Positions 24,677 through 34,818 of a stretch of 64,000 nt of DNA are shown piece by piece. The notes beneath the pieces were generated by a model. It did no database searches and was not told the origin of the DNA. It saw only the letters and a program-made list of their open reading frames with translations. The stretch comes from Cystobasidiomycetes sp. EMM_F5 (taxonomy: Eukaryota). Position 1 is the first letter of the stretch, and every line of letters starts with the position of its first letter. The position numbers and the translations under genes are program-made. The DNA is taken from contig JBPGPT010000004.1 of assembly GCA_051047955.1 (NCBI GenBank), positions 620,001 to 684,000 of the forward strand, given 5' to 3'.

Positions 24677-26585
24677 CTAATCTTTGTACGACATCCATCC
24701 CACTTCTTCAAGCTTGTCTATCTTATCCATTACTTCTTGCTTGGCGTCGTTCTGGTATTTGAGTACGGCCGCTTGCAGGCTTGGGTTTGAAGCTGCCAAT
24801 ATACGCACTGCCAGTAGAGCAGCATTGGTCGAATTGTTGATAGCCACAGTAGCGACCGGTATGCCTCGCTGCATAATGATGCGTTAGCCGGTGCCCAGTG
24901 TTATCGGATGTGAGCGACTAGACCCACCGGCATCTGCACGATACTATGCAGCGAATCCACCCCATCTAACGTACTGCCTTTGACTGGCACGCCCACAACC
25001 GGAAGAGCGGTCAAAGCAGCCACCATGCCTGGAAGATGAGCTGCACCGCCGGCCCCAGCGATGATGACCCGTATACCACGCTCCGCCGCATCTTTTGCGT
25101 GTTCAAACATACGATCAGGTGTACGATGCGCAGAGACGATTGTCAATTCGTGAGGGATAGCAAATACAGGAAGTGATAAGATCTTGGACGCCGCGAGCAT
25201 GACTGGCAAGTCTGATGTAGAGCCCATTATAATGGACGCGAGAGGCTGGGGATGCGAAAAGCCACCTTGTCGCTGGGTGAGCGGCGGTAGAGGCGATGGA
25301 TAGTAGCTTTTAAACTGTGGAAGTGCCTCTATTAAGGGCCGCAAGTTGGTTTCGAGCTGAGCGTCCGTGTCGGCAACAAGTGTGATGTGGCCCATTTTGC
25401 GACCGGACCGACAGCCCTCCTTGCCATAGAGATGCACAGTAGCGCCAGGTATACTGAGGGATGTATCTACGACACGGTCCATCTCTGCTGTGCTGTCAGA
25501 TCCTCCGAGCAGATTCAGCATGGCTGTTGATTGCACTTTTAGCCCAGTTGAGCCCAGTGGCAGTCCTAGAACAGCGCGCAGGTGATTTTCGAATTGGGAC
25601 GTATGGCACGCTTCGATTGTGTGATGGCCGGAGTTGTGTGGTCTAGGTGCGATTTCGTTGATGAGTAGCAATCCTGGTGTACAGGATGACGATGTCAGTA
25701 TACTTTGTGAGCAGTATCGCGCAATCACTGACCATCCGACATCATGAACATTTCCACTCCAAATATACCTACTGCTCCTTCCCCAAATGTGTCGATGGCG
25801 GACTCTGCAAATTGCCGTGCTCTTTGAGCTGTTCCCCGCTTGCCTTTCCGCAAGGGAGCTCTGACGAGGTGACATATATTGTCGCGATGGACTGTCTCTA
25901 CGGGGTCATAACTTCGCGTCTCGCCGTTGGCTGAGCGCACGACCATGACTGCGATCTCTGCTTCAAACGGTGCGAATCGTTCTGCATATAATTTGCGAGA
26001 ACCTGCCCCCAGCGCTTCAATGGCTGTATCGATATCATTCTCGCTGCGTAAAAGATAGTTTCCGCGCCCGTCGTAGGCCTGAGTTCGCGATTTGAGCATG
26101 AGAGGGAGTCCGTAGGATTGTATCGCTTGCCGGGTGGATGCACCCGTATCTTCTCCAATGGCAACAAAATCAGCCACCGGTAGACCATGTTTTGCCAGGT
26201 GAAGCTTCTGATTATATTTATCCTGGATGCAGATGATTACCTCTGGCGACGGCCTCACTGCGATACCTCTTCCGCTGCGACCGCCTGTCGACGTGTTGTC
26301 AACTCGGATTGACTGCAGAGCTTTTGCGTCGACGTGCTCAATCTCGACCGTCAGCACATCCGACAACTCGGCGAGCTGCTGAATCTTGACGGGATCCGAG
26401 AAGCTGCCATCGAGGTGCGAGGCTGACGATATCTGCTTGGCTGGCGAGTTTGCTGCGGGATCCAGCGCCAGCACGGTGATGTTTAAACGAGAGGCAGCTT
26501 CGACGAGCATACGTCCAAGCTGCCCACCGCCGAGGCAGCCAACGACAGAGTCGCGCGAGTACGACGTGGAAGCAGCTGAGCTCAT
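24677..26585 (-). CDS. ADE2: Phosphoribosylaminoimidazole carboxylase (PurK-PurE fusion)
   Basis: [93 protein letters not shown]. Confidence 0.97.
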
Positions 26586-27362
26586 GGTTGGTCGGCTGGG
26601 CAGGTGGAGCGCCAGCTTCAACTTGGAGCGAGATGCACCGACTGATCTTGCGATAAGGTGGTTCAAAGTCACTACAGACCATAATACTGACTACAGTCAC
26701 TTTAAAGTAATCCATTGCATGACTCGGATCGACTGCCTCGTCCTGGGATGATCTGACGGATTCGTATTCTGACTCAGATTGACGACGTCTCCACAACGCT
26801 GCTTTCGCGACACTCCAATTGGATTGTCCCTGTTCGTCAATGAATCGCCTATTACTGCCGTTCCCACGTACTGACATACATACACACCCACCCCCCTGCC
26901 GGAGTGATTCCGCTCGTGCGAAGTCTGTGCAACACCCTCATACGCACATAGCGTTTCCCACATCTTTCGCAGCCCTTCTAGCTGTCAGTAGGATTCAAGT
27001 TGCAACTTCACATCTCCTTTCTCCGTATCGCCTTTACTCAATCACTCTCCCTACTTGCACTGGCCATTGATAGAAAAGTGCCAATCACAATCTGGGTGTC
27101 TGCGCTCACCTTTGCGTCAACCACCTCATCATCACTCTCTTCTATCGCAAACTCCAAATCAAAATCCGCTTCTACATCCTTCCCGCGTACCACGGTTCCG
27201 AACACCCATCCTACCATAGCCTGCGCACGCGGTTACAGAATCCGAAGGCACATTCCGCTGCCGCGGCGTATAACCCCCTGTGTGCGCCGACGCTTGCATC
27301 ACAAGCGTCAACCCACTCTCTCCTCGCAAGCCTCATTTAGACAAACCTGACTGCCAGTACTG

Positions 27363-28034
27363 ATGTCATCTTGCCTGGCTCCGAATTGCCAGAATGCCGC
27401 GACAAAGCACCATTCAGGTTGCCATTATCATACGTGTATCACCATAGGTTGCTCCGTTTTCCTCGAGACCACTGGCTACTGCGAGAAACATAAATGCTAT
27501 TGTGGAAGAGGCATGACCAACACCCGCAGTAGCAGATGGTGTGGCAGCGACTCTTGTCTGTGCCGAGGTATGCGAGGAGGAACAAAATGCCGCAACCTCA
27601 AATCGTATTCCTCTGGCGCCGATCAGTACTGCGGTACCGCCGTCTGTTCGGTCGATATCTGTAGAGAGCACCTCCTTCGAGACTCCGACATACTAAACTC
27701 CGACAGATATTGTCACAATCACACTTGCAGCACTCGGAACTGTCAACAGCCTACAGAGACACATGTCAATCATTGCAACACTCATCGATGTACTTATATG
27801 TGGAGGCCAGATTTCCACAAGCCGTGGGTCCGATGTGGCTATGAAAAACGCGCCGGCAGCAACTACTGCAGGTCGCATGTCACAAGGCCCAATGCCGTCA
27901 CCTCTGGCCAACACAAAAAGAAAAAGAAGTCTCCTACTCCACCCCCGGGCTCAGGATCCAATGGTGGCTCAAGTTCGACGATTTGGGAGCGACGAGATGA
28001 TACTTCAAGTCATCATCGACGTCACAAATACTAA
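27363..28034 (+). CDS. Cys/His-repeat (CCCH-type) putative zinc-binding protein, paralog 1 (223 aa)
   Basis: Intronless ORF with repeated C-x2-H-x-C junctions (GCHYHTC, YCEKHKC, YCHNHTC, HCNTHRC, YCRSH), KKKKK basic tail, no signal peptide. Confidence 0.8.
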   Translation: MSSCLAPNCQNAATKHHSGCHYHTCITIGCSVFLETTGYCEKHKCYCGRGMTNTRSSRWCGSDSCLCRGMRGGTKCRNLKSYSSGADQYCGTAVCSVDICREHLLRDSDILNSDRYCHNHTCSTRNCQQPTETHVNHCNTHRCTYMWRPDFHKPWVRCGYEKRAGSNYCRSHVTRPNAVTSGQHKKKKKSPTPPPGSGSNGGSSSTIWERRDDTSSHHRRHKY

Positions 28035-28824
28035 TAGACGTCACAAATATTAACAGGACGGTAGAGGGGTCTCTCTAAGCTTGGTATACGGCCTTCGAAT
28101 GAGCCCTATCTAACCAAACCCAACCCGAATACTCTTGTCGTAGCGAAGATCTCAACTTGCGCATCGAAAACTGCGATGCACTTCAACAATTCACATTCCT
28201 CCCCGCAAAATCGAAAATGAATCACTACTCTGTCTGACCTCCAGCACCACCTTTTATGCCGACGAGCAGAGACATGATCAACAATAAAGCAAGTGTCAGC
28301 AAATAGCTAACAAAAATTGAAACAAGAAAATACTGAAGAATGTAAAGTAAATGATACCAGGTTTTATCTTGCCGACTGCAATCAGCTAGAATCGAGACCA
28401 CAAAACTGACCGCCTCCTATGGCCGTTCCATCGCGACATTGCTGTCCATTGTCTGCAATCATGTTTGTATGCTTTGAGCTAAAGGACCGCATTCACACAA
28501 ACGAGCACACGGCTACTATTGATGTTCGACGCGTCGCTGGACATATCCTCAGATTATGATTTACTCTAACGATGGCTTCGAACAACTGCATTTACCCAGT
28601 CAAGCGCTAAAATTGGTGTCCAGATAAGGCCACTGACAACAGGATGTGTCACTTCATCTCATGCTGTGTATTCTGACCTACCCGTTCATCTCGTGCCCTT
28701 GTGTCGCCACATTTACACACTTGCACATTCGAATGGGTGACGCGTATGCTGTCGAACATTGCCGCAACTATCACTGCCTAGCCTTGCAGTGCAGTGCACT
28801 TCGGTCTTCAGCGGTCAGCGCGAC

Positions 28825-28831
28825 TATAAAA
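28825..28831 (+). promoter_or_regulatory. TATA box of Cys/His-repeat paralog 2
   Basis: TATAAAA followed by a CT-rich tract; the same context is conserved at 31448. Confidence 0.65.
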
Positions 28832-29000
28832 AAGCAATCCTCTCGTTCTGTCTCCTCTTTCTCCGTCACTAGCTGTCGATACCTCACTTTTCTGCTCTTC
28901 ACAAGGCATCTTCCTCCAATCCCTTAGATTCGCGTCAATCCTTGCTCTCGTCGGCCTCTACGAAACCGCGTCACTCCCCTACGAAGTCTTCCACGTCCAT

Positions 29001-30092
29001 ATGTCGAGACGGCACGGCCAGCAACGGAATTCACAGAAGAAATCGGGCGGCAGACAGTCACCACCGGGGTCTTCGAGTTATGTTGAAGCTGGGCAGTCGA
29101 GTAAGACACCTTGTCGATACCAAACGTATGGTGAGCCGTGTGGTAAAAGTGCACGATCGGATGAAATCTTCTGCGATCGCCATATCTGCGTTCATTGGCC
29201 AGCATGTCGACAATGGATTAAAACTCCTAGCCACAAAGCATGTGAAGCGCATCTTTGCATTTGCGGCAAACCCACTCAATCAGTTTATTTTGCGCATTGC
29301 GGCGACCGAAAATGCTTGTGCAAAGCCACACTGGATCAGCAGGGTGGGCCGCGGTGTGGACACGTCAAGAGTGCTCGCGAGTCAGCTTACTGCCGCCGGA
29401 GTGTTTGCCAAGCGAGTGGCTGCAACACTCATCCAAATCAGTACGAGACGGGCCCGCGATCGGCATTGACATCGAATCCATACTGCCACAAGCACACATG
29501 TCAGTGGGCAGGTTGTCTTGAGGGAAAGACTCAAAGTATGATCAACGGAAAAGTCAAAACCAACTACGTCTGCGAATCACACGAATGTCCAGTATCCTCA
29601 TGCGTCAAGGCAAAAGTTCAAGATCGCTCCTACTGCGCCGAACACTACTGTCCGGTGGAAGGTTGCGTTGAAAGGAAGACTGAAAGAATAGTCAAAGGAC
29701 AACGACAAAAGACCTTCTTTTGCAGCTCACACGAATGCCCGGTACGCGTGTGCGTCAATCAGAAAATCGGAAAGCAGTGCAACAACCACACTTGCGCTGC
29801 GACCGAAGATATAAGGCGCTGCCATGAAATAAAAAGCGTGGGGTCGTCGTTTTGTAACGTTCTCGGTCATCGCTGCGCTCACCGCGACAAAGTCAACGCG
29901 CAATGCCCCGAGGGTATTTACCGGGCTAGGAATGTGAATACAGCGCTGTGTGAGTTACATTACGCCAAACAACAAGCACTCTTCGCCGCCAGGATGAATC
30001 CACCACGAGCCCCGCGCAAGGACGACTCATTCGATCCGAGCTTTTCTTATGATCCGAAGATTCAGCCAGGTTATAAGAAAAAAAGGCAGTAA
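29001..30092 (+). CDS. Cys/His-repeat (CCCH-type) putative zinc-binding protein, paralog 2 (363 aa)
   Basis: Intronless ORF: FCDRHIC, ACEAHLC, YCHKHTC, VCESHEC, YCAEHYC, FCSSHEC, QCNNHTC, LCELH; basic termini (YKKKRQ). Confidence 0.85.
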   Translation: MSRRHGQQRNSQKKSGGRQSPPGSSSYVEAGQSSKTPCRYQTYGEPCGKSARSDEIFCDRHICVHWPACRQWIKTPSHKACEAHLCICGKPTQSVYFAHCGDRKCLCKATLDQQGGPRCGHVKSARESAYCRRSVCQASGCNTHPNQYETGPRSALTSNPYCHKHTCQWAGCLEGKTQSMINGKVKTNYVCESHECPVSSCVKAKVQDRSYCAEHYCPVEGCVERKTERIVKGQRQKTFFCSSHECPVRVCVNQKIGKQCNNHTCAATEDIRRCHEIKSVGSSFCNVLGHRCAHRDKVNAQCPEGIYRARNVNTALCELHYAKQQALFAARMNPPRAPRKDDSFDPSFSYDPKIQPGYKKKRQ

Positions 30093-30514
30093 TAATCTGT
30101 CTACTTCACCGCTTCTTCGAGGCGTTTGCAGGATGCTCCTTAAACCGGCCGGGGTCACGACAGTTTCTCGCACAAGCACAAAACATTGCGCATCTCATCA
30201 CTTTTTCGGGCAGCACTACGCAATTATACCTACTCTTCATGAATTCCTTAGACGCATACTCAATCTTCTTGTTGTAACACTATGCATACATGTATTTCTG
30301 TCTTGGTAAACTTGTATACACACTGAGAGGGATAGGCTATGCTTGTTCTTCAATGCACTACGGATGCCGAATCTTGCTCACACCACTTTAGACTGCACTG
30401 AACTGCTGTGGCGCTAATGGTGGCTTGCATGCCTTGCGAATGCTTGATTTTGTGTGGATCAATGCAGATTTCACATGTACCAGGGATTTACTGACGTTGC
30501 GCTGGGACTGATCG

Positions 30515-30975
30515 TTACAATACTCCGTCTCCGTACTTTTTCTGAACACGCTTCTCAAAGGCGCCCATAATCTTCCGCGAGACGTCTTGAAAAGTCTGAC
30601 CAGCCGCTATCCGGTACAAGGGATTTGCAAACTCGTAGGCGAGGTCGATGCTGACCATTGTGGGATTTTGCTGGTCTGACGGGACAGATTGGGCGTCGGC
30701 CAGAAGAGTAGAGGTGGAGAAGGGTCTCCCGGGAACTGCGAGAGGGTTCCCATCGCGAGGGGGAGTTGCTTTCGACATGTGAGGAGCATCTCGGGGCGTG
30801 GGCGTCAGCGTCCACGTCGACCTGAGGACCTTGAACAGACTTGACGGGTCTGCGTAGGCCTGGAGGGCGGGCGTGGGCACAGCACGAGTCAGTGTATGAT
30901 ATTTGTAGCAATGAAAGCCAAAGCCATTGCGCTCACCGATATCTCGCGATACTCATCACAAGTTACGTACGACTT
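30515..30975 (-). pseudogene. COQ10: 5'-truncated duplicate of COQ10 (last exon 30515-30859, intron, short stump of preceding exon)
   Basis: Last exon is near-identical to 32999-33343. The stump reads KSYVTCDEYREIS versus KSHVTCEKYREVS in the full gene. No upstream COQ10 exons found. Confidence 0.8.
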
Positions 30976-31447
30976 GCTTGCTGGAGGTTGTTTCCCAGTC
31001 AGTACAGGCAAATGCTGACTGCATGCCAACCCCAGCAGAACTGCAGCACATCTTGTTTTAAATGACCAGCGCTAGTATGCGTTGACTGAGATCCTTCATG
31101 AGGCTGTAGCTGCCTGAAACTCCACTCCGCATTCGGTCACCATGCTGCCCGACGTCCATGAACTTCTTCCGCAGAGGTGTTACATAGCCATACAGCTGCC
31201 ATCTATCCCGCAAGCTCACCGCCTGCAGTAAACACACAGATGCTCTCAGACAAATACAAAGTCACTCGACATGTCACCTTCCCTCGTGCTGTGCATTTTG
31301 AACAACAATGCCTTTCGCACCCTTGTGTCGCCACGAAGAAACACCCTTGTGCAATCAGGACTGACTGACGCTTATGCTGCCGGACAATGCCGCAACTATC
31401 ACTGCATAGCCTTGCAGTACATTTTGTTCTTGAGCGGTCAGCGCGAC

Positions 31448-31454
31448 TATAAAA
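31448..31454 (+). promoter_or_regulatory. TATA box of Cys/His-repeat paralog 3
   Basis: TATAAAA in the same GCGGTCAGCGCGAC-TATAAAA context as at 28825. Confidence 0.65.
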
Positions 31455-31625
31455 TAAAGCAATACTCTCGTTCTGTCTCCTCTTTCTCCGTCACTATCTG
31501 TCGATACCTCACCCCTCTGCTCTTCACAAGGCATCTTCTTCCAATCCCTTAGATTTGCGTCAATCCTTGCTCTCGTCGGCCTCCACGGAACCGCGTCACT
31601 CACCTCCGAATATTTTTACGTCCAT

Positions 31626-32570
31626 ATGTCGAACCGGCGAAGCCACTCACAAAGTCCACAGAGGACACCTGGCGGTCAGACACAATCTGGGTCTTCGAAA
31701 CATGTTGGAGCCAAACAACCGACTACGCTACGGTGCGAATACATGATACCCGGGGGACAATGTCCACAACAGTCTTTGGAGGAGGGAAGGTTCTGCAAAC
31801 TCCATTATTGCCTGCATTGGCCGGATTGCAAAAACGAGGTTTCAATTGCTGGTTTCTCAGCATGCCGCTGGCATACATGCATATGCCTTCGGTCTGCACT
31901 ACATGCGTCATCTAGGTATTGCGGTCGCGGAAAATGCAGGTGCCGAGCTCTACTCGATCAGGAAGGCCAGCCGCGATGTACAAGCGTCACCAAGACTTCC
32001 GCTTCAAACTTCTGCTATCGCAATGTCTGCAGCGCGACAGGCTGTGGTATCCATCCAGGGCAATACCGGACGAGCCAGCGATCGGAATTGCAATCAGATC
32101 CTTGCTGCAACCGGCACACATGTGAAGCGATAAATTGCCAGAGGGTCAAGACTGGGGAAATCATCAATGGAACACTGGATCCCAACACTTTCTGCGTGTT
32201 ACACGAATGCACATTTGCCTCCTGTGTCAAGCCAAAACTCTCACGTCAAAGCCTGTGCAATGAACACACTTGCACCGCGAACGACGAGAATACGGCCAGG
32301 CGCTGTCACAGAATCAATATCAGAGGCTCGTCGTATTGCAGTCGTCACCGCTGCACAGACGAAGACGACGAAGGAGTGCAATGCGTCCGTGAGAGGCACT
32401 TGGAGCAGGGTGTGCGGACACCGCTGTGTGTGTTCCATCTCGCTGAAAAACGAGCACTCGCAGCTGCCAGTCCACCGCGTCGAGACAAACAACCACAACT
32501 AACAATGCGACCCAAGCGTCCCGAATACGATCCCAGCCGTCATTCGGGACATGTCAAAAAATGGAAATAA
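31626..32570 (+). CDS. Cys/His-repeat (CCCH-type) putative zinc-binding protein, paralog 3 (314 aa)
   Basis: Intronless ORF: FCKLHYC, ACRWHTC, CCNRHTC, FCVLHEC, LCNEHTC, YCSRHRC, LCVFH; colinear with paralog 2. Confidence 0.85.
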   Translation: MSNRRSHSQSPQRTPGGQTQSGSSKHVGAKQPTTLRCEYMIPGGQCPQQSLEEGRFCKLHYCLHWPDCKNEVSIAGFSACRWHTCICLRSALHASSRYCGRGKCRCRALLDQEGQPRCTSVTKTSASNFCYRNVCSATGCGIHPGQYRTSQRSELQSDPCCNRHTCEAINCQRVKTGEIINGTLDPNTFCVLHECTFASCVKPKLSRQSLCNEHTCTANDENTARRCHRINIRGSSYCSRHRCTDEDDEGVQCVRERHLEQGVRTPLCVFHLAEKRALAAASPPRRDKQPQLTMRPKRPEYDPSRHSGHVKKWK

Positions 32571-32998
32571 CACATCTGTCTGCTCCACCGGTTCTTCAAG
32601 GCGTTGACAGGAGGCTCTTGAGTTTGGCTGGGACAACGACAAAATCTCACACAAGCACAAAACATTGCGCATCTGATCATACTTTCGAGCAGCACTACGC
32701 AATTATACCTACTTTCATGACAACCTTAGACGCAGACTCAATCTTCTTGTTGTAACACTATGCATACATGTACTGCTGCTTTGACAACCCTACACTTATG
32801 GGAAAATGATAGACTATGCTACTATCGCAATGCAATACGTATACGATCGCTGAATCTTGCTCACGGCACTTTAGACTGCACTGAACTGCTGTGGCGCTGA
32901 TGGTGGCTTGCGAGCCTTGCGAATGCTTGATTTTGTGTGGATCAATGCAGATTTCACATCTATCAGGGATTTTGCTGACGTTGTGCTAGGAGTGATTG

Positions 32999-33875
32999 TT
33001 ATAGTACTCCGTCTCCGTACTTTATCTGAACACGCTTCTCAAAGGCGCCCATAATCTTTCGCGAGACGTCTTGAAAAGTCTGACCAGCCGCTATCCGGTA
33101 CAAGGGATTTGCAAACTCGTAGGCGAGGTCGATGCTGACCATTGTGGGATTTTGCTGGTCTGACGGGACAGATTGGGCGTCGGCCAGTAGGGTAGAGGTG
33201 GAGAAGGGTCTCCCGGGAACTGCGAGAGGGTTCCCATCGCGAGGGGGAGATGCTTTCGACATGTGAGGAGCATCTCTGGGCGTGGGTGTCAGCGTCCACG
33301 TCGACCTAAGGACCTTGAACAGACTTGACGGGTCGGCGTAGGCCTGGAGGGCGGGCGCAGGCACAGCGCGAGTCAGTGTATGATACTGTCAGAAGTAAGC
33401 CAATGACATAGACCCACCGACACCTCGCGATACTTCTCACACGTGACGTGCGACTTCCACGATTCTTCGAAACCGAGTGCACCAATCTTGAGGACTGCAT
33501 CGAATGTATGGACGTCTCCCGGTGAACCCTCATCATCGAGCCATGGCTTGTCGGCTACGCTGCCTCGCCCGCTGTGCTTCCCAACCGTGCTCGACAGGAT
33601 GAAGGGCAGAAAGTTTGAGTAGTTTTCGACATCGGCGACCATGGCGTACAGCTGTCGTTGGGTGTAGCTGCGGGACGATGTCAGCGATATACTCGTGAAG
33701 CAACAATATCAACCACTCACGGCAATATCTTTCGCTCGTGGAACGTATGCAGCGATCCATCGACCTTGAAGCTCCCAGCGGACAGTCTGGACGATGGAGT
33801 GAAACACCGCGACAGTCTGGGTGTGCGCAGACAGCGACACGGGAGCATCGACGTGGACTGGACAGCCTGCAACAT
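32999..33875 (-). CDS. COQ10: Coenzyme Q-binding protein Coq10 (START/polyketide cyclase fold), 3 exons
   Basis: Arg/Ser-rich presequence MLQAVQSTSMLPCRCLRTPRLSRCF, ERKILP|YTQRQLYAMVADVENYSNFLPF, SLFKVLRSTW, YEFANPLY, IMGAFEKR. Confidence 0.9.
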
Positions 33876-34818
33876 CGTGGCAGCGGGAATCCTGACAAAG
33901 TGCGGCTGGATCAAGAGCAACGAGCAGGAAGATTATGCTGGTATTCCACTGAATGCTGATACACGGACAGCATGTACAAGTATAACGCTGTCCCCGCTGT
34001 CGCATTCTCTTTGACGCAAGTGACGGGGCTTCTTGTACGAAGGGCTGGCCTCGTCCTCATTTCTTCGAATCAAGTCCTGCGTCACGGTATATCGCTCCCA
34101 TTACTACCCCCTCTTCTGTACTTGCACAACCTGATTGCATGGATACTCCAATACTTCTCCACAACGCATTCTTTCACAACAAGGATCGCCACTGATCTCC
34201 GCTTGCTGACTTCCTAATTCCCTCCATCGCCTTTGTCTTCACGCTGTGTGTCCCTGAGCAGACGCAAATGGTTCATCAGCCTTAGTCAAGCAGACATGCC
34301 ATATCTTGGAGGTGCCCAACGCGGACAGCAGGGCAGTATCGAGAATTGCTGTCATTGTCCCAAACACACCTCTCGAACACTGGATGCCTTCAATGCCGGC
34401 GCCCACTGAGGTATCGTGTCGGGTACAAGTGTTCTGCACAGGAGACATAGGAGGAGCCCATCAAATGGGACATCCCATCCCGCATGGCGCGTTATTACTT
34501 GGAAACCCCGATGTCACAATTTTCCCGGGTCCGGATCAGTATACTGTCCCCGAAGGTATCGCTGTTCGTTCAACCTAAGCTCCGGAGCCGCTCGATGTAC
34601 TGCGTCGAGTCTGTGAGCAGTAGGTCCCCACTATTTTCCCACCAACCTTTATCTGGAAGTGTTTTCGCATGACTTGGAACAATTGAACCCTCCCACATCG
34701 GCAAGTGTCAACCTATACTTCTCGAGCAAAGCGTGCATTATAGGACAATGATTAGCTGTCGCTTATTCGCGAGTAATACATCGAAACCGCTTGTTGTCTG
34801 CAACCAATTCATGGACCA

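Follow-up and report, generated by a model that had tools for sequence, protein, structure and literature searches.

Two neighbouring copies of a Cys/His-repeat gene, P2 and P3, raise the question why the duplicated DNA around them has stayed so much more alike than the coding sequences it encloses. The original prediction for this fungal locus offered two answers, diversifying selection on the repeats in the manner of an arms race, or gene conversion that homogenised the flanks only. We compared the two copies with each other and with the remainder of the window, which is the whole stretch of 64,000 nucleotides analysed.

Results

Layout of the duplication and the island of divergence

The duplication consists of units A and B, lying next to each other (Table 1). 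In blastn, 28647-29089 pairs with 31272-31711 (79.5% over 449 columns, E 8e-109) and 30078-30975 with 32556-33456 (86.7% over 911 columns, E 0). The coding block between these pairs gives just one weak match of 65%, 29296-29615 against 31918-32237, and overall flank identity is 81-87%. The tandem duplication with conserved flanks and strongly diverged Cys/His-repeat coding sequences is thus confirmed, both by these pairs and identities and by a breakpoint fit. The 296-nt spacer between the units has no relative within the window that blastn detects, and its local alignment scores against the upstream part of the COQ10-like gene and the DNA left of unit A are at the level of shuffled sequence. 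Immediately outside their left ends the two units are flanked by unrelated DNA, with 36 of 47 positions different.

Table 1. Positions of the features discussed in the text, counted from the first letter of the window.
Feature	Positions	Strand	Basis or counterpart
P1, 223 aa; the third paralog, more distant, immediately upstream and lacking the shared flanks	27363..28034	+	tblastn
Unit A of the duplication, with 5' flank, coding sequence of P2, 3' flank and truncated COQ10-like copy	28647..30975	+	aligned to unit B with blastn and MAFFT
P2 5' flank: upstream region, TATA-like run at ~28825, pyrimidine-rich leader	28647..29000	+	pairs with 31272-31625; 292/360 columns identical
Island of divergence (unit A coordinates)	28985..30166	+	best two-breakpoint fit; boundary alignment
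P2, 363 aa: about eleven Cys3His modules between a basic, hydrophilic N-terminal tail and a basic C-terminal tail	29001..30092	+	ORF, Cys spacing
P2 3' flank	30093..30975	+	pairs with 32571-33456; 774/895 columns identical (86.5%)
Truncated COQ10-like copy: last exon 30515-30859, intron ~30860-30936, 39 nt of preceding exon	30515..30975	-	translations, PF03364 profile
Spacer between units A and B, 296 nt	30976..31271	.	blastn: matches only itself
Unit B of the duplication, with 5' flank, coding sequence of P3 and 3' flank; continues into the intact COQ10-like gene	31272..33456	+	blastn and MAFFT alignment against unit A
P3, 314 aa: collinear P2 paralog without one 49-residue two-module unit	31626..32570	+	ORF, alignment, collinearity
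Intact COQ10-like START-domain gene, three exons, last exon 32999-33343	32999..33875	-	translations, PF03364 profile

With two breakpoints fitted, 39% of positions differ inside the island of divergence and 11.8% outside it, a contrast far beyond chance. The position of the island matches the coding sequence, its edges lying 16 nt before the P2 start codon and 74 nt past the stop codon. Within the coding block, 562 of 1101 alignment columns are identical and 165 are gap columns. Both edges are graded. Identity falls from 82% to 66% and then to 50-60% on entering the island at its 5' side, and rises from 57% through 75% to 85% on leaving it at the 3' side. Repeat-induced point mutation (RIP) would make nearly all differences C-to-T and G-to-A transitions over the whole repeat; this signature is absent, as transitions and transversions number 136 and 159 in the core and the flanks are not affected.

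The flanks themselves have diverged unevenly. Taken by segment toward the ATG, the 5' flank differs by 30%, 13%, 5.5% and 18%, and the 3' flank segments by 25%, 15%, 3.8% and 17%; on both sides the middle is lowest, and the outer edges and the parts adjacent to the coding sequence are higher. The expectation of near-identical flanks therefore holds in that they are far more alike than the coding sequences, but not uniformly, as segments range from 3.8% to 30% difference. The run from 28810 to 29000 against 31433-31625, singled out beforehand, is indeed identical in 175 of 193 alignment columns (90.7%), and 28824-28950, the best-kept stretch on the 5' side, has 7 differences in 127 positions. 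Compared with the 3' baseline, the far-upstream segment gives P 0.001 and the segment from the TATA-like run to minus 50 gives P 0.003. In the far-upstream segment 31 of 102 positions differ, and its divergence does not fall significantly below that of the coding four-fold sites (P 0.29). Since the roughly 175 nt between the TATA-like run and the start codon, presumably a transcribed leader, are well kept, mutation linked to transcription is not the explanation. The uneven divergence of the flanks is more readily explained by several conversion tracts than by one event. A search of metagenome contigs for the two flank motifs gave no exact match.

The co-duplicated COQ10-like exon as internal clock

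Against the COQ10/START profile PF03364 (Polyketide_cyc; cut-off 23.4), the intact gene of unit B scores 30.8 bits with its middle exon, over profile positions 3-56, and 22.6 bits with its last exon, over positions 71-126, which places the gene in this family and suggests the name COQ10. The truncated copy in unit A keeps its intron splice signals and covers profile positions 71-126 only. The two last exons are 97% identical: the eleven differences that had been counted by hand were recovered, in 342 coding nucleotides, and over 30501-30845 and its unit B counterpart 13 of 345 nucleotides differ. The codon changes comprise 8 synonymous and 2 non-synonymous ones.

Three neutral markers date the flanks, namely the silent sites of this exon, the COQ10 intron with its exon edge, and the 3' flank. 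The exon pair gives a dS of 0.10-0.11, intron and edge a K2P distance of 0.20, and the 3' flank one of 0.17 (15% difference in 318 nt). For P2 and P3, four methods return a dS of 0.58-0.78. Restricting the comparison to four-fold sites, taken for P2/P3 from codons for identical residues, 22 of 56 sites differ (JC 0.56) versus 6 of 64 in the COQ10 exon (Fisher P 1.7e-4). The same P2/P3 sites also exceed the 3' flank at 30181-30500 taken with the intron and exon edge, where 69 of 445 positions differ (Fisher P 6.7e-5). This makes the coding block several times as old as its flanks, and the neutral divergence of the flanks lies below the silent-site divergence of the block they enclose, as in a gene-conversion mosaic. 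An age gap of this kind cannot come from selection acting on the protein alone. With flanks younger than the coding block, it is recombination history, and not selection alone, that creates the contrast.

Selection on P2 and P3

P2 and P3 share 125 of 310 aligned residues (40%), among them 38 conserved Cys/His positions (28 Cys and 10 His by direct count). The scaffold is kept and both frames are open, as had been proposed, and the peptides cited for that proposal are present. The two genes differ in length by a net 147 nt, or 49 codons, in frame. In neutral simulations the P3 frame remained open in 44, 1 and 1 of 2000 runs at K 0.1, 0.2 and 0.3, respectively. Because frame retention is this rare and the length difference is a whole number of codons, we conclude that P2 and P3 are functional and that selection keeps both frames open. 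P2 was also compared with P3 in windows of 75 nt. Once the inserted unit and the gapped C-terminal tail are set aside, 27 windows have a collinear counterpart in P3, and for each of them the best in-frame P3 match lies at most 2 codons from this counterpart; change has proceeded by collinear point substitution, not by module shuffling.

Pairwise omega is 0.72-1.04 depending on the method. The maximum-likelihood estimate is 0.85 over 310 codons (2dlnL 0.89 against omega 1, P 0.35) and 1.18 once the 38 conserved Cys/His codons are removed (2dlnL 0.86, P 0.35), in a test on one sequence pair that has low power. Of the two answers offered originally, flank-only conversion fits the silent-site distances; an omega not significantly different from 1 speaks neither for nor against the arms race. 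The refuting outcome named in the original prediction, an old duplicate with high dS and dN/dS well below 1, is borne out for dS and not for dN/dS.

A family of chained Cys3His modules

P1 is 25-30% identical to P2 and P3 by tblastn, and its flanks match nothing elsewhere in the window. The ligand spacing C-x4-C-x(8-20)-C-x2-H-x-C recurs in P1-P3, with modules chained such that the Cys after each His opens the next module. The Cys3His spacing occurs 5-24 times in each of 25 out of 25 remote hits, and the stronger relatives carry seven to twenty-four motifs per protein. A structural model of five modules has a mean pLDDT of 83 and no match in the PDB.

P2 and P3 match no Pfam family at E<=10, and P1 is only weakly similar to zf-TRM13_CCCH (PF11722; E 0.11, 12.6 bits, cut-off 20.9). 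The gathering scores of PF11722, WRC (PF08879), zf-C3Hc3H (PF13891) and the NF-X1-type fingers of Pfam-A are missed by all three proteins, and an Atlas lead to an NFX1-type cluster (score 0.79) stays under the counting level. One remote relative, P0006, reaches 29.2 bits for PF13891 (cut-off 27) and E 6e-5 for WRC. Among 1.84 billion representative proteins there is no relative closer than E 5e-11. The distant relatives include bacterial-looking proteins and AAA-ATPase fusions. P2 and P3, each from an intronless gene, are arrays of C-x4-C-xn-C-x2-H modules, in our reading intracellular; they probably bind zinc and may bind nucleic acid.

Discussion

We favour, at slightly better than even confidence, the reading that P2 and P3 are old tandem duplicates whose flanks were homogenised by gene conversion around a coding island of divergence. 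The original duplication would have copied the unit in full, together with the tail end of the adjacent COQ10-like gene, and later non-allelic gene conversion would repeatedly have homogenised both flanks, with the coding sequence escaping. The island could persist because converted coding sequences were selected against, the two proteins differing in function, or because the coding block diverged early and fast and became too dissimilar to recombine. Within it, selection would keep the reading frame and the Cys/His ligands, and the rest would change at about the neutral rate. This reading draws on a single pair of sequences. It is also demanding, in that two short flanks (~350 nt and ~880 nt) must be hit repeatedly and the 1.1 kb between them always missed. 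Constraint on promoter, leader and 3' UTR could explain part of the flank conservation. Conversion also does not predict the silent excess in the truncated COQ10 copy.

The young age on which all three neutral markers of the 3' side agree would also follow from a recent duplication of the whole unit, at a neutral distance of about 0.1-0.2, after which one coding sequence was replaced, through recombination in the shared flanks, by a divergent family member from elsewhere in the genome. The match of the island to the coding sequence suits such a replacement, and the COQ10 fragment behind P2 requires duplication of a whole unit anyway. A swap is nonetheless hard to reconcile with graded island edges and heterogeneous divergence inside the flanks, and the sole other paralog in the window, P1, does not share the flanks; we regard it as unlikely. 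Taking the arms race at face value, a recent duplication followed by very fast change of the coding sequence alone, driven by strong diversifying selection or by a mutational process acting locally, would likewise place the island on the coding sequence, and it gains from the remoteness of the family's nearest relative and from an omega near or above 1 outside the scaffold. Selection on residues, however, cannot raise the four-fold sites of conserved codons so far above those of the neighbouring exon, omega is not significantly greater than 1, and module shuffling is not seen. A mutational process would have to act with no sign of RIP in the transition-to-transversion ratio and spare the presumably transcribed leader. 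We consider this improbable.

Still less credible is a single old duplication without conversion, in which functional constraint makes the flanks look young and a nearly unconstrained coding sequence drifts. An omega near 1, promoter and leader as plausible targets of constraint, and the 30% divergence of the outermost upstream segment all accord with it. It founders on the 3' side, where silent sites of the COQ10 exon, the intron and 318 nt of flank would all need constraint in both copies, one of them a truncated fragment. Finally, against two haplotypes or alleles placed in tandem by the assembly stands the difference between the units, which are 4-40% apart and differ by 147 nt in coding length. 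The unique spacer separates them, and their left outer DNA is unrelated, whereas alleles would share outer flanks; an artefact, for which we found no positive sign, is therefore highly improbable.

Flank-only copy-correction is a known kind of event, which would here have acted in an unnamed family. Primate opsin introns are one case of an island of divergence under gene conversion, and Teshima and Innan reportedly modelled such islands. As may be the case for P2/P3, conversion there keeps paralogous DNA alike except near selected differences, with a local divergence peak that includes silent sites. The usual islands span a few sites or one exon; that of P2/P3 takes in a whole coding sequence, with edges at most 16 and 74 nt from the start and stop codons. 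Other examples are RHCE/RHD (Innan 2003) and yeast heat-shock paralogs (Takuno and Innan 2009), both as cited in the excerpt of PMC3924818, and the Tigriopus GOT1 paralogs, as far as the excerpt of PMC3728101 describes them. According to the excerpt of PMC3112145, MAGE-A3 and MAGE-A6 in a palindrome of the human X chromosome have diverged coding parts in surroundings homogenised by gene conversion, at a dN/dS of about 0.9, which its authors ascribe to negative selection against homogenisation and not to an elevated substitution rate. P2/P3 resemble this pair, as that excerpt presents it, in diverged coding parts, probably homogenised surroundings and a dN/dS near 0.9. The MAGE pair lies in an inverted palindrome of a mammal, and its much smaller divergence is centred on the epitope-coding part (excerpt of PMC3112145); P2/P3 form a direct repeat in a fungus, diverged over the whole coding sequence.

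With the CCCH-type modules of TRM13 (PF11722), WRC (PF08879) and zf-C3Hc3H (PF13891), the P2/P3 modules share the ligand pattern Cys, Cys, [YF]-Cys-x2-His; unlike those, they are chained and without a Pfam match. KRAB-ZNF proteins and PRDM9 are fast-evolving tandem zinc-finger arrays built of C2H2 modules. By analogy, P2/P3 combine small putative metal-binding modules, invariant ligands, fast-changing residues between them and changes in module number; they differ in that the modules are not C2H2, omega is not significantly above 1 and module shuffling is not seen. We think it rather unlikely, though worth stating, that P2 and P3 are co-regulated nucleic-acid-binding zinc-module arrays engaged in a conflict inside the cell, with transposons or mycoviruses for instance. 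Selection would then drive and protect differences in the recognition surfaces, conversion would keep the shared promoter and 3' end, and the truncated COQ10 exon behind P2 may in addition be retained because it codes for part of a new chimeric gene. If true, this would be a fungal counterpart of KRAB-ZNF and PRDM9 array evolution with a module type unnamed in databases.

Beyond this locus, the comparison illustrates how an apparent arms-race pattern can be resolved, with the silent sites of a co-duplicated neighbouring exon serving as a single internal control. Given related genomes, a gene pair of the P2/P3 type would be suited to tests of selection against gene conversion. The locus also flags an unannotated, very fast-evolving fungal family of chained Cys3His modules.

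Organization of the duplicated locus

The locus lies in a window that resembles a fungal chromosome, with spliced genes, TATA-like runs and ~52% G+C. P2 and P3, two of three Cys/His-repeat paralogs, are each contained in one unit of a tandem duplication (see the table of features). In the intact COQ10-like gene, the middle exon covers positions 3-56 of PF03364 with 30.8 bits and the last exon positions 71-126. The 296-nt spacer between units A and B resembles nothing elsewhere in the window. Against the upstream part of COQ10 and the DNA left of unit A it scores 21.5 and 24.0, with shuffle means of 23.3 and 22.6, and no residual homology is detected to either. P1 is located directly upstream, shares 25-30% identity with P2/P3 and lacks their common flanks. 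A scan of 26500-34500 against Rfam gave 0 matches. The window also contains an ADE2-type phosphoribosylaminoimidazole carboxylase gene, whose closest non-self relatives show 76% identity and named fungi only ~53%. As this gene has no near named relatives, the organism is poorly sampled.

Features of the locus, in window positions
Feature	Position	Strand	Remarks
ADE2-type gene	24901-26585	-	
P1	27363-28034	+	223 aa, intronless ORF
Unit A	28647-30975		holds P2; blastn vs unit B
TATA-like run to 50 nt before ATG	28824-28950; 31447-31575		unit A; unit B
Diverged block	28985-30166		two-breakpoint fit
P2	29001-30092	+	363 aa, intronless ORF
P2 internal repeat	29481-29630; 29631-29777		two-module unit
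Truncated COQ10-like copy	30515-30975	-	end of unit A; last exon, intron and 39 nt of preceding exon
Unit B	31272-33456		holds P3; blastn vs unit A
P3	31626-32570	+	314 aa, intronless ORF
COQ10-like START-domain gene, intact	~33875-32999	-	downstream of P1-P3; translations, PF03364

Divergence of flanks and coding sequence

The original prediction of conserved flanks around a strongly diverged coding sequence is borne out by the alignment of the two units. The 5' range (28810-29000 vs 31433-31625) agrees in 175 of 193 columns and the 3' flank in 774 of 895, and the COQ10 last exon differs at 11 of 342 coding bases. In contrast, only 562 of 1101 columns are identical in the coding block, where 165 of the 1101 columns are gaps. 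P2 and P3 keep the Cys/His scaffold and have 125 of 310 aligned residues in common, including 38 conserved Cys/His codons. This contrast is real and statistically solid.

The fitted block extends from 16 nt 5' of the ATG to 74 nt 3' of the stop codon, with 39% difference within and 11.8% outside. Its edges are graded in the alignment, not sharp. Divergence of the flanks is heterogeneous and greater at the outer edges and beside the coding block. Compared with the neutral baseline of the 3' side, the far upstream segment deviates with P 0.001. The segment between the TATA-like run and position -50 relative to the ATG falls below this baseline (7 of 127 positions differ, P 0.003), reflecting either shared-leader constraint or the most recent conversion tract. 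An exact-match scan of metagenome contigs with one conserved motif per flank found 0 loci for each.

Difference along the duplicated unit (unit A vs B; coding sequence, P2 vs P3)
Segment	Difference
Far upstream	30%
Upstream to TATA	13%
TATA to minus 50	5.5%
Leader, last 50 nt	18%
Coding sequence	34-43%
First 88 nt past stop	25%
Following 320 nt of 3' flank	15%
COQ10 exon region	3.8%
Intron and exon edge	17%

Several other causes of the contrast were rejected. RIP does not fit the core, with its 136 transitions vs 159 transversions, and transcription-linked mutation does not fit the presumed transcribed leader (~175 nt between TATA-like run and ATG), which is the best-kept non-coding part. Module shuffling is dismissed by the position of the best in-frame P3 match, which lies at most 2 codons from the collinear partner in 27 of 27 P2 windows of 75 nt, counting the windows with such a partner outside both the inserted unit and the gapped tail at the C-terminus. 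The additional modules of P2 match the unit that precedes them, and divergence in the N- and C-terminal tails, which contain no repeats, equals that of the core (1.94 substitutions per codon in each). The two genes do not behave as decaying pseudogenes: with K set to 0.1, 0.2 and 0.3 per lineage, only 44, 1 and 1 of 2000 neutral simulations, respectively, preserve the open frame of P3. The coding lengths of P2 and P3 differ by exactly 49 codons.

Silent sites and dN/dS

Estimates of dN/dS between P2 and P3 were obtained over 310 codons.

Substitution rates between P2 and P3 by method
Method	dN	dS	omega
NG86	0.56	0.78	0.72
LWL85	0.56	0.65	0.86
YN00	0.61	0.66	0.93
ML (Biopython)	0.61	0.58	1.04

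A separate pairwise codon-model fit gives an omega of 0.85, and of 1.18 without the 38 conserved Cys/His codons; neither value differs from 1 (2dlnL 0.89 and 0.86, P 0.35). The cleanest silent-site measure is provided by four-fold sites in codons whose residue is unchanged, and 22 of 56 such sites differ between P2 and P3 (JC 0.56). The COQ10 exon pair carried in the same duplication represents an internal clock, with dS of 0.10-0.11 and 6 of 64 four-fold sites differing (Fisher P 1.7e-4 against P2/P3). The 3' flank and intron differ at 69 of 445 positions (P 6.7e-5 against the P2/P3 four-fold sites). By these measures, the age of the coding block is several times that of its flanks. Given that the silent sites of conserved codons have diverged, selection on residues cannot account for this age gap. 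Two readings had been offered beforehand, diversifying selection on the repeats in an arms race and gene conversion that homogenises the flanks only. The silent-site contrast supports the latter, while diversifying selection on P2/P3 is unproven, with omega not different from 1.

Origin of the divergence island

The COQ10 fragment behind P2 requires a duplication of the whole unit. Since this duplication, the flanks have a more recent coalescence than the coding sequences. We consider it somewhat probable that repeated non-allelic gene conversion acted on the flanks and left an island of divergence at the coding block. This reading is favored by the heterogeneity of the flanks, the graded edges of the island and the fit of the island to the coding sequence. 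Such a fit would be expected if selection removes converted coding sequences; alternatively, the coding block may have diverged early, past the reach of recombination. That the coding cassette was instead swapped in from another family member after a recent duplication seems rather unlikely to us. A recent duplication with extreme change restricted to the coding sequence is contradicted by the silent sites and has a low probability. Even less credit is given to an old duplication with merely constrained flanks, as mere constraint is contradicted by the silent sites of COQ10, by the intron and by the 3' flank. Mis-assembly is extremely improbable in view of the unique spacer between the units and the unrelated outer flanks.

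Flank conversion does not predict the synonymous bias in the truncated COQ10 copy. The intron of this copy has intact donor, branch and acceptor signals, and the copy contains no in-frame start codon. It differs from the live exon by 8 synonymous and 2 non-synonymous codon changes (dN 0.008, dS 0.11, dN/dS ~0.07). Under free drift ~56-62% of changes are expected to be non-synonymous, and the probability of at most 2 in 10 is 0.008-0.024, varying with kappa and with the constraint assumed on the live copy. The copy is expected to be dead, yet its changes are biased to synonymous ones, a hint that comes from only ten changes. The copy possibly belongs to a chimeric gene, or the bias may be chance.

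Teshima and Innan have reportedly given theoretical treatments of divergence islands under conversion. Homogenised flanks around such an island are a known phenomenon. In PMC3112145, MAGE-A3/A6 are described with diverged coding parts, homogenised surroundings and a dN/dS of 0.9, and are interpreted by the same logic as applied here to P2/P3. The idea of divergence islands under gene conversion is also present in PMC3728101.

The Cys/His-module proteins

P1, P2 and P3 contain 9-10% cysteine in chained modules of the form C-x4-C-x(8-20)-C-x2-H-x-C, in which the final Cys starts the next module. The Cys3His pattern points to predicted zinc sites, not disulfides. As the N-termini read from the translations are basic and hydrophilic without a hydrophobic signal-like stretch, the proteins are probably intracellular. 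In Pfam, P2 and P3 have no family match at E<=10, and P1 matches zf-TRM13_CCCH weakly (E 0.11). Within P2, a two-module unit of 49-50 residues has undergone an old tandem duplication (identity at 20 of 49 residues, dS 0.73); P3 has a single copy of this unit.

The full-length P2 model is useless (pLDDT 30). A five-module piece is modeled with a mean pLDDT of 83 as small, hairpin-bearing units. For this model, Foldseek returned nothing at E<=0.001 (best 0.77) and VIA-align nothing with Z>=2 among 48,161 chains; a PDB sequence search gave 0 matches at E<=1, and Atlas only sub-threshold leads (0.80 and 0.79). The chained C-x2-H-x-C motif, searched by its pattern notation, had no literature match, and none of the zf-C3Hc3H articles among the matches listed concerns fungi by its title.

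A word-based homologue search with P2 scored 720 candidates, none at E<=0.001. The profile of all three proteins yielded 26 matches at E<=0.001 among 1.84 billion representatives, with P1 itself as best match and a runner-up at E 5e-11. The public protein collection includes P1 but no exact copy of P2 or P3. Each of the 25 non-P1 matches contains 5-24 C-x2-H-x-C motifs. Among 14 matches scanned with Pfam, two have the module array fused to an AAA ATPase with Vps4 C-terminal domain, one has a prokaryotic N-methylation motif and one reaches zf-C3Hc3H and WRC. Outside this set of 14, one further match belongs to the ascomycete Echria macrotheca and is a hypothetical protein. Distant relatives P0004, P0007, P0006 and P0014 include the AAA ATPase/Vps4 fusions and proteins with bacterial-type features, namely the N-terminal methylation motif and, by eye, a start resembling that of a lipoprotein. 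From these features and fusions it follows that the module is spread well beyond fungi. P1-P3 form an unnamed and very fast-evolving family.
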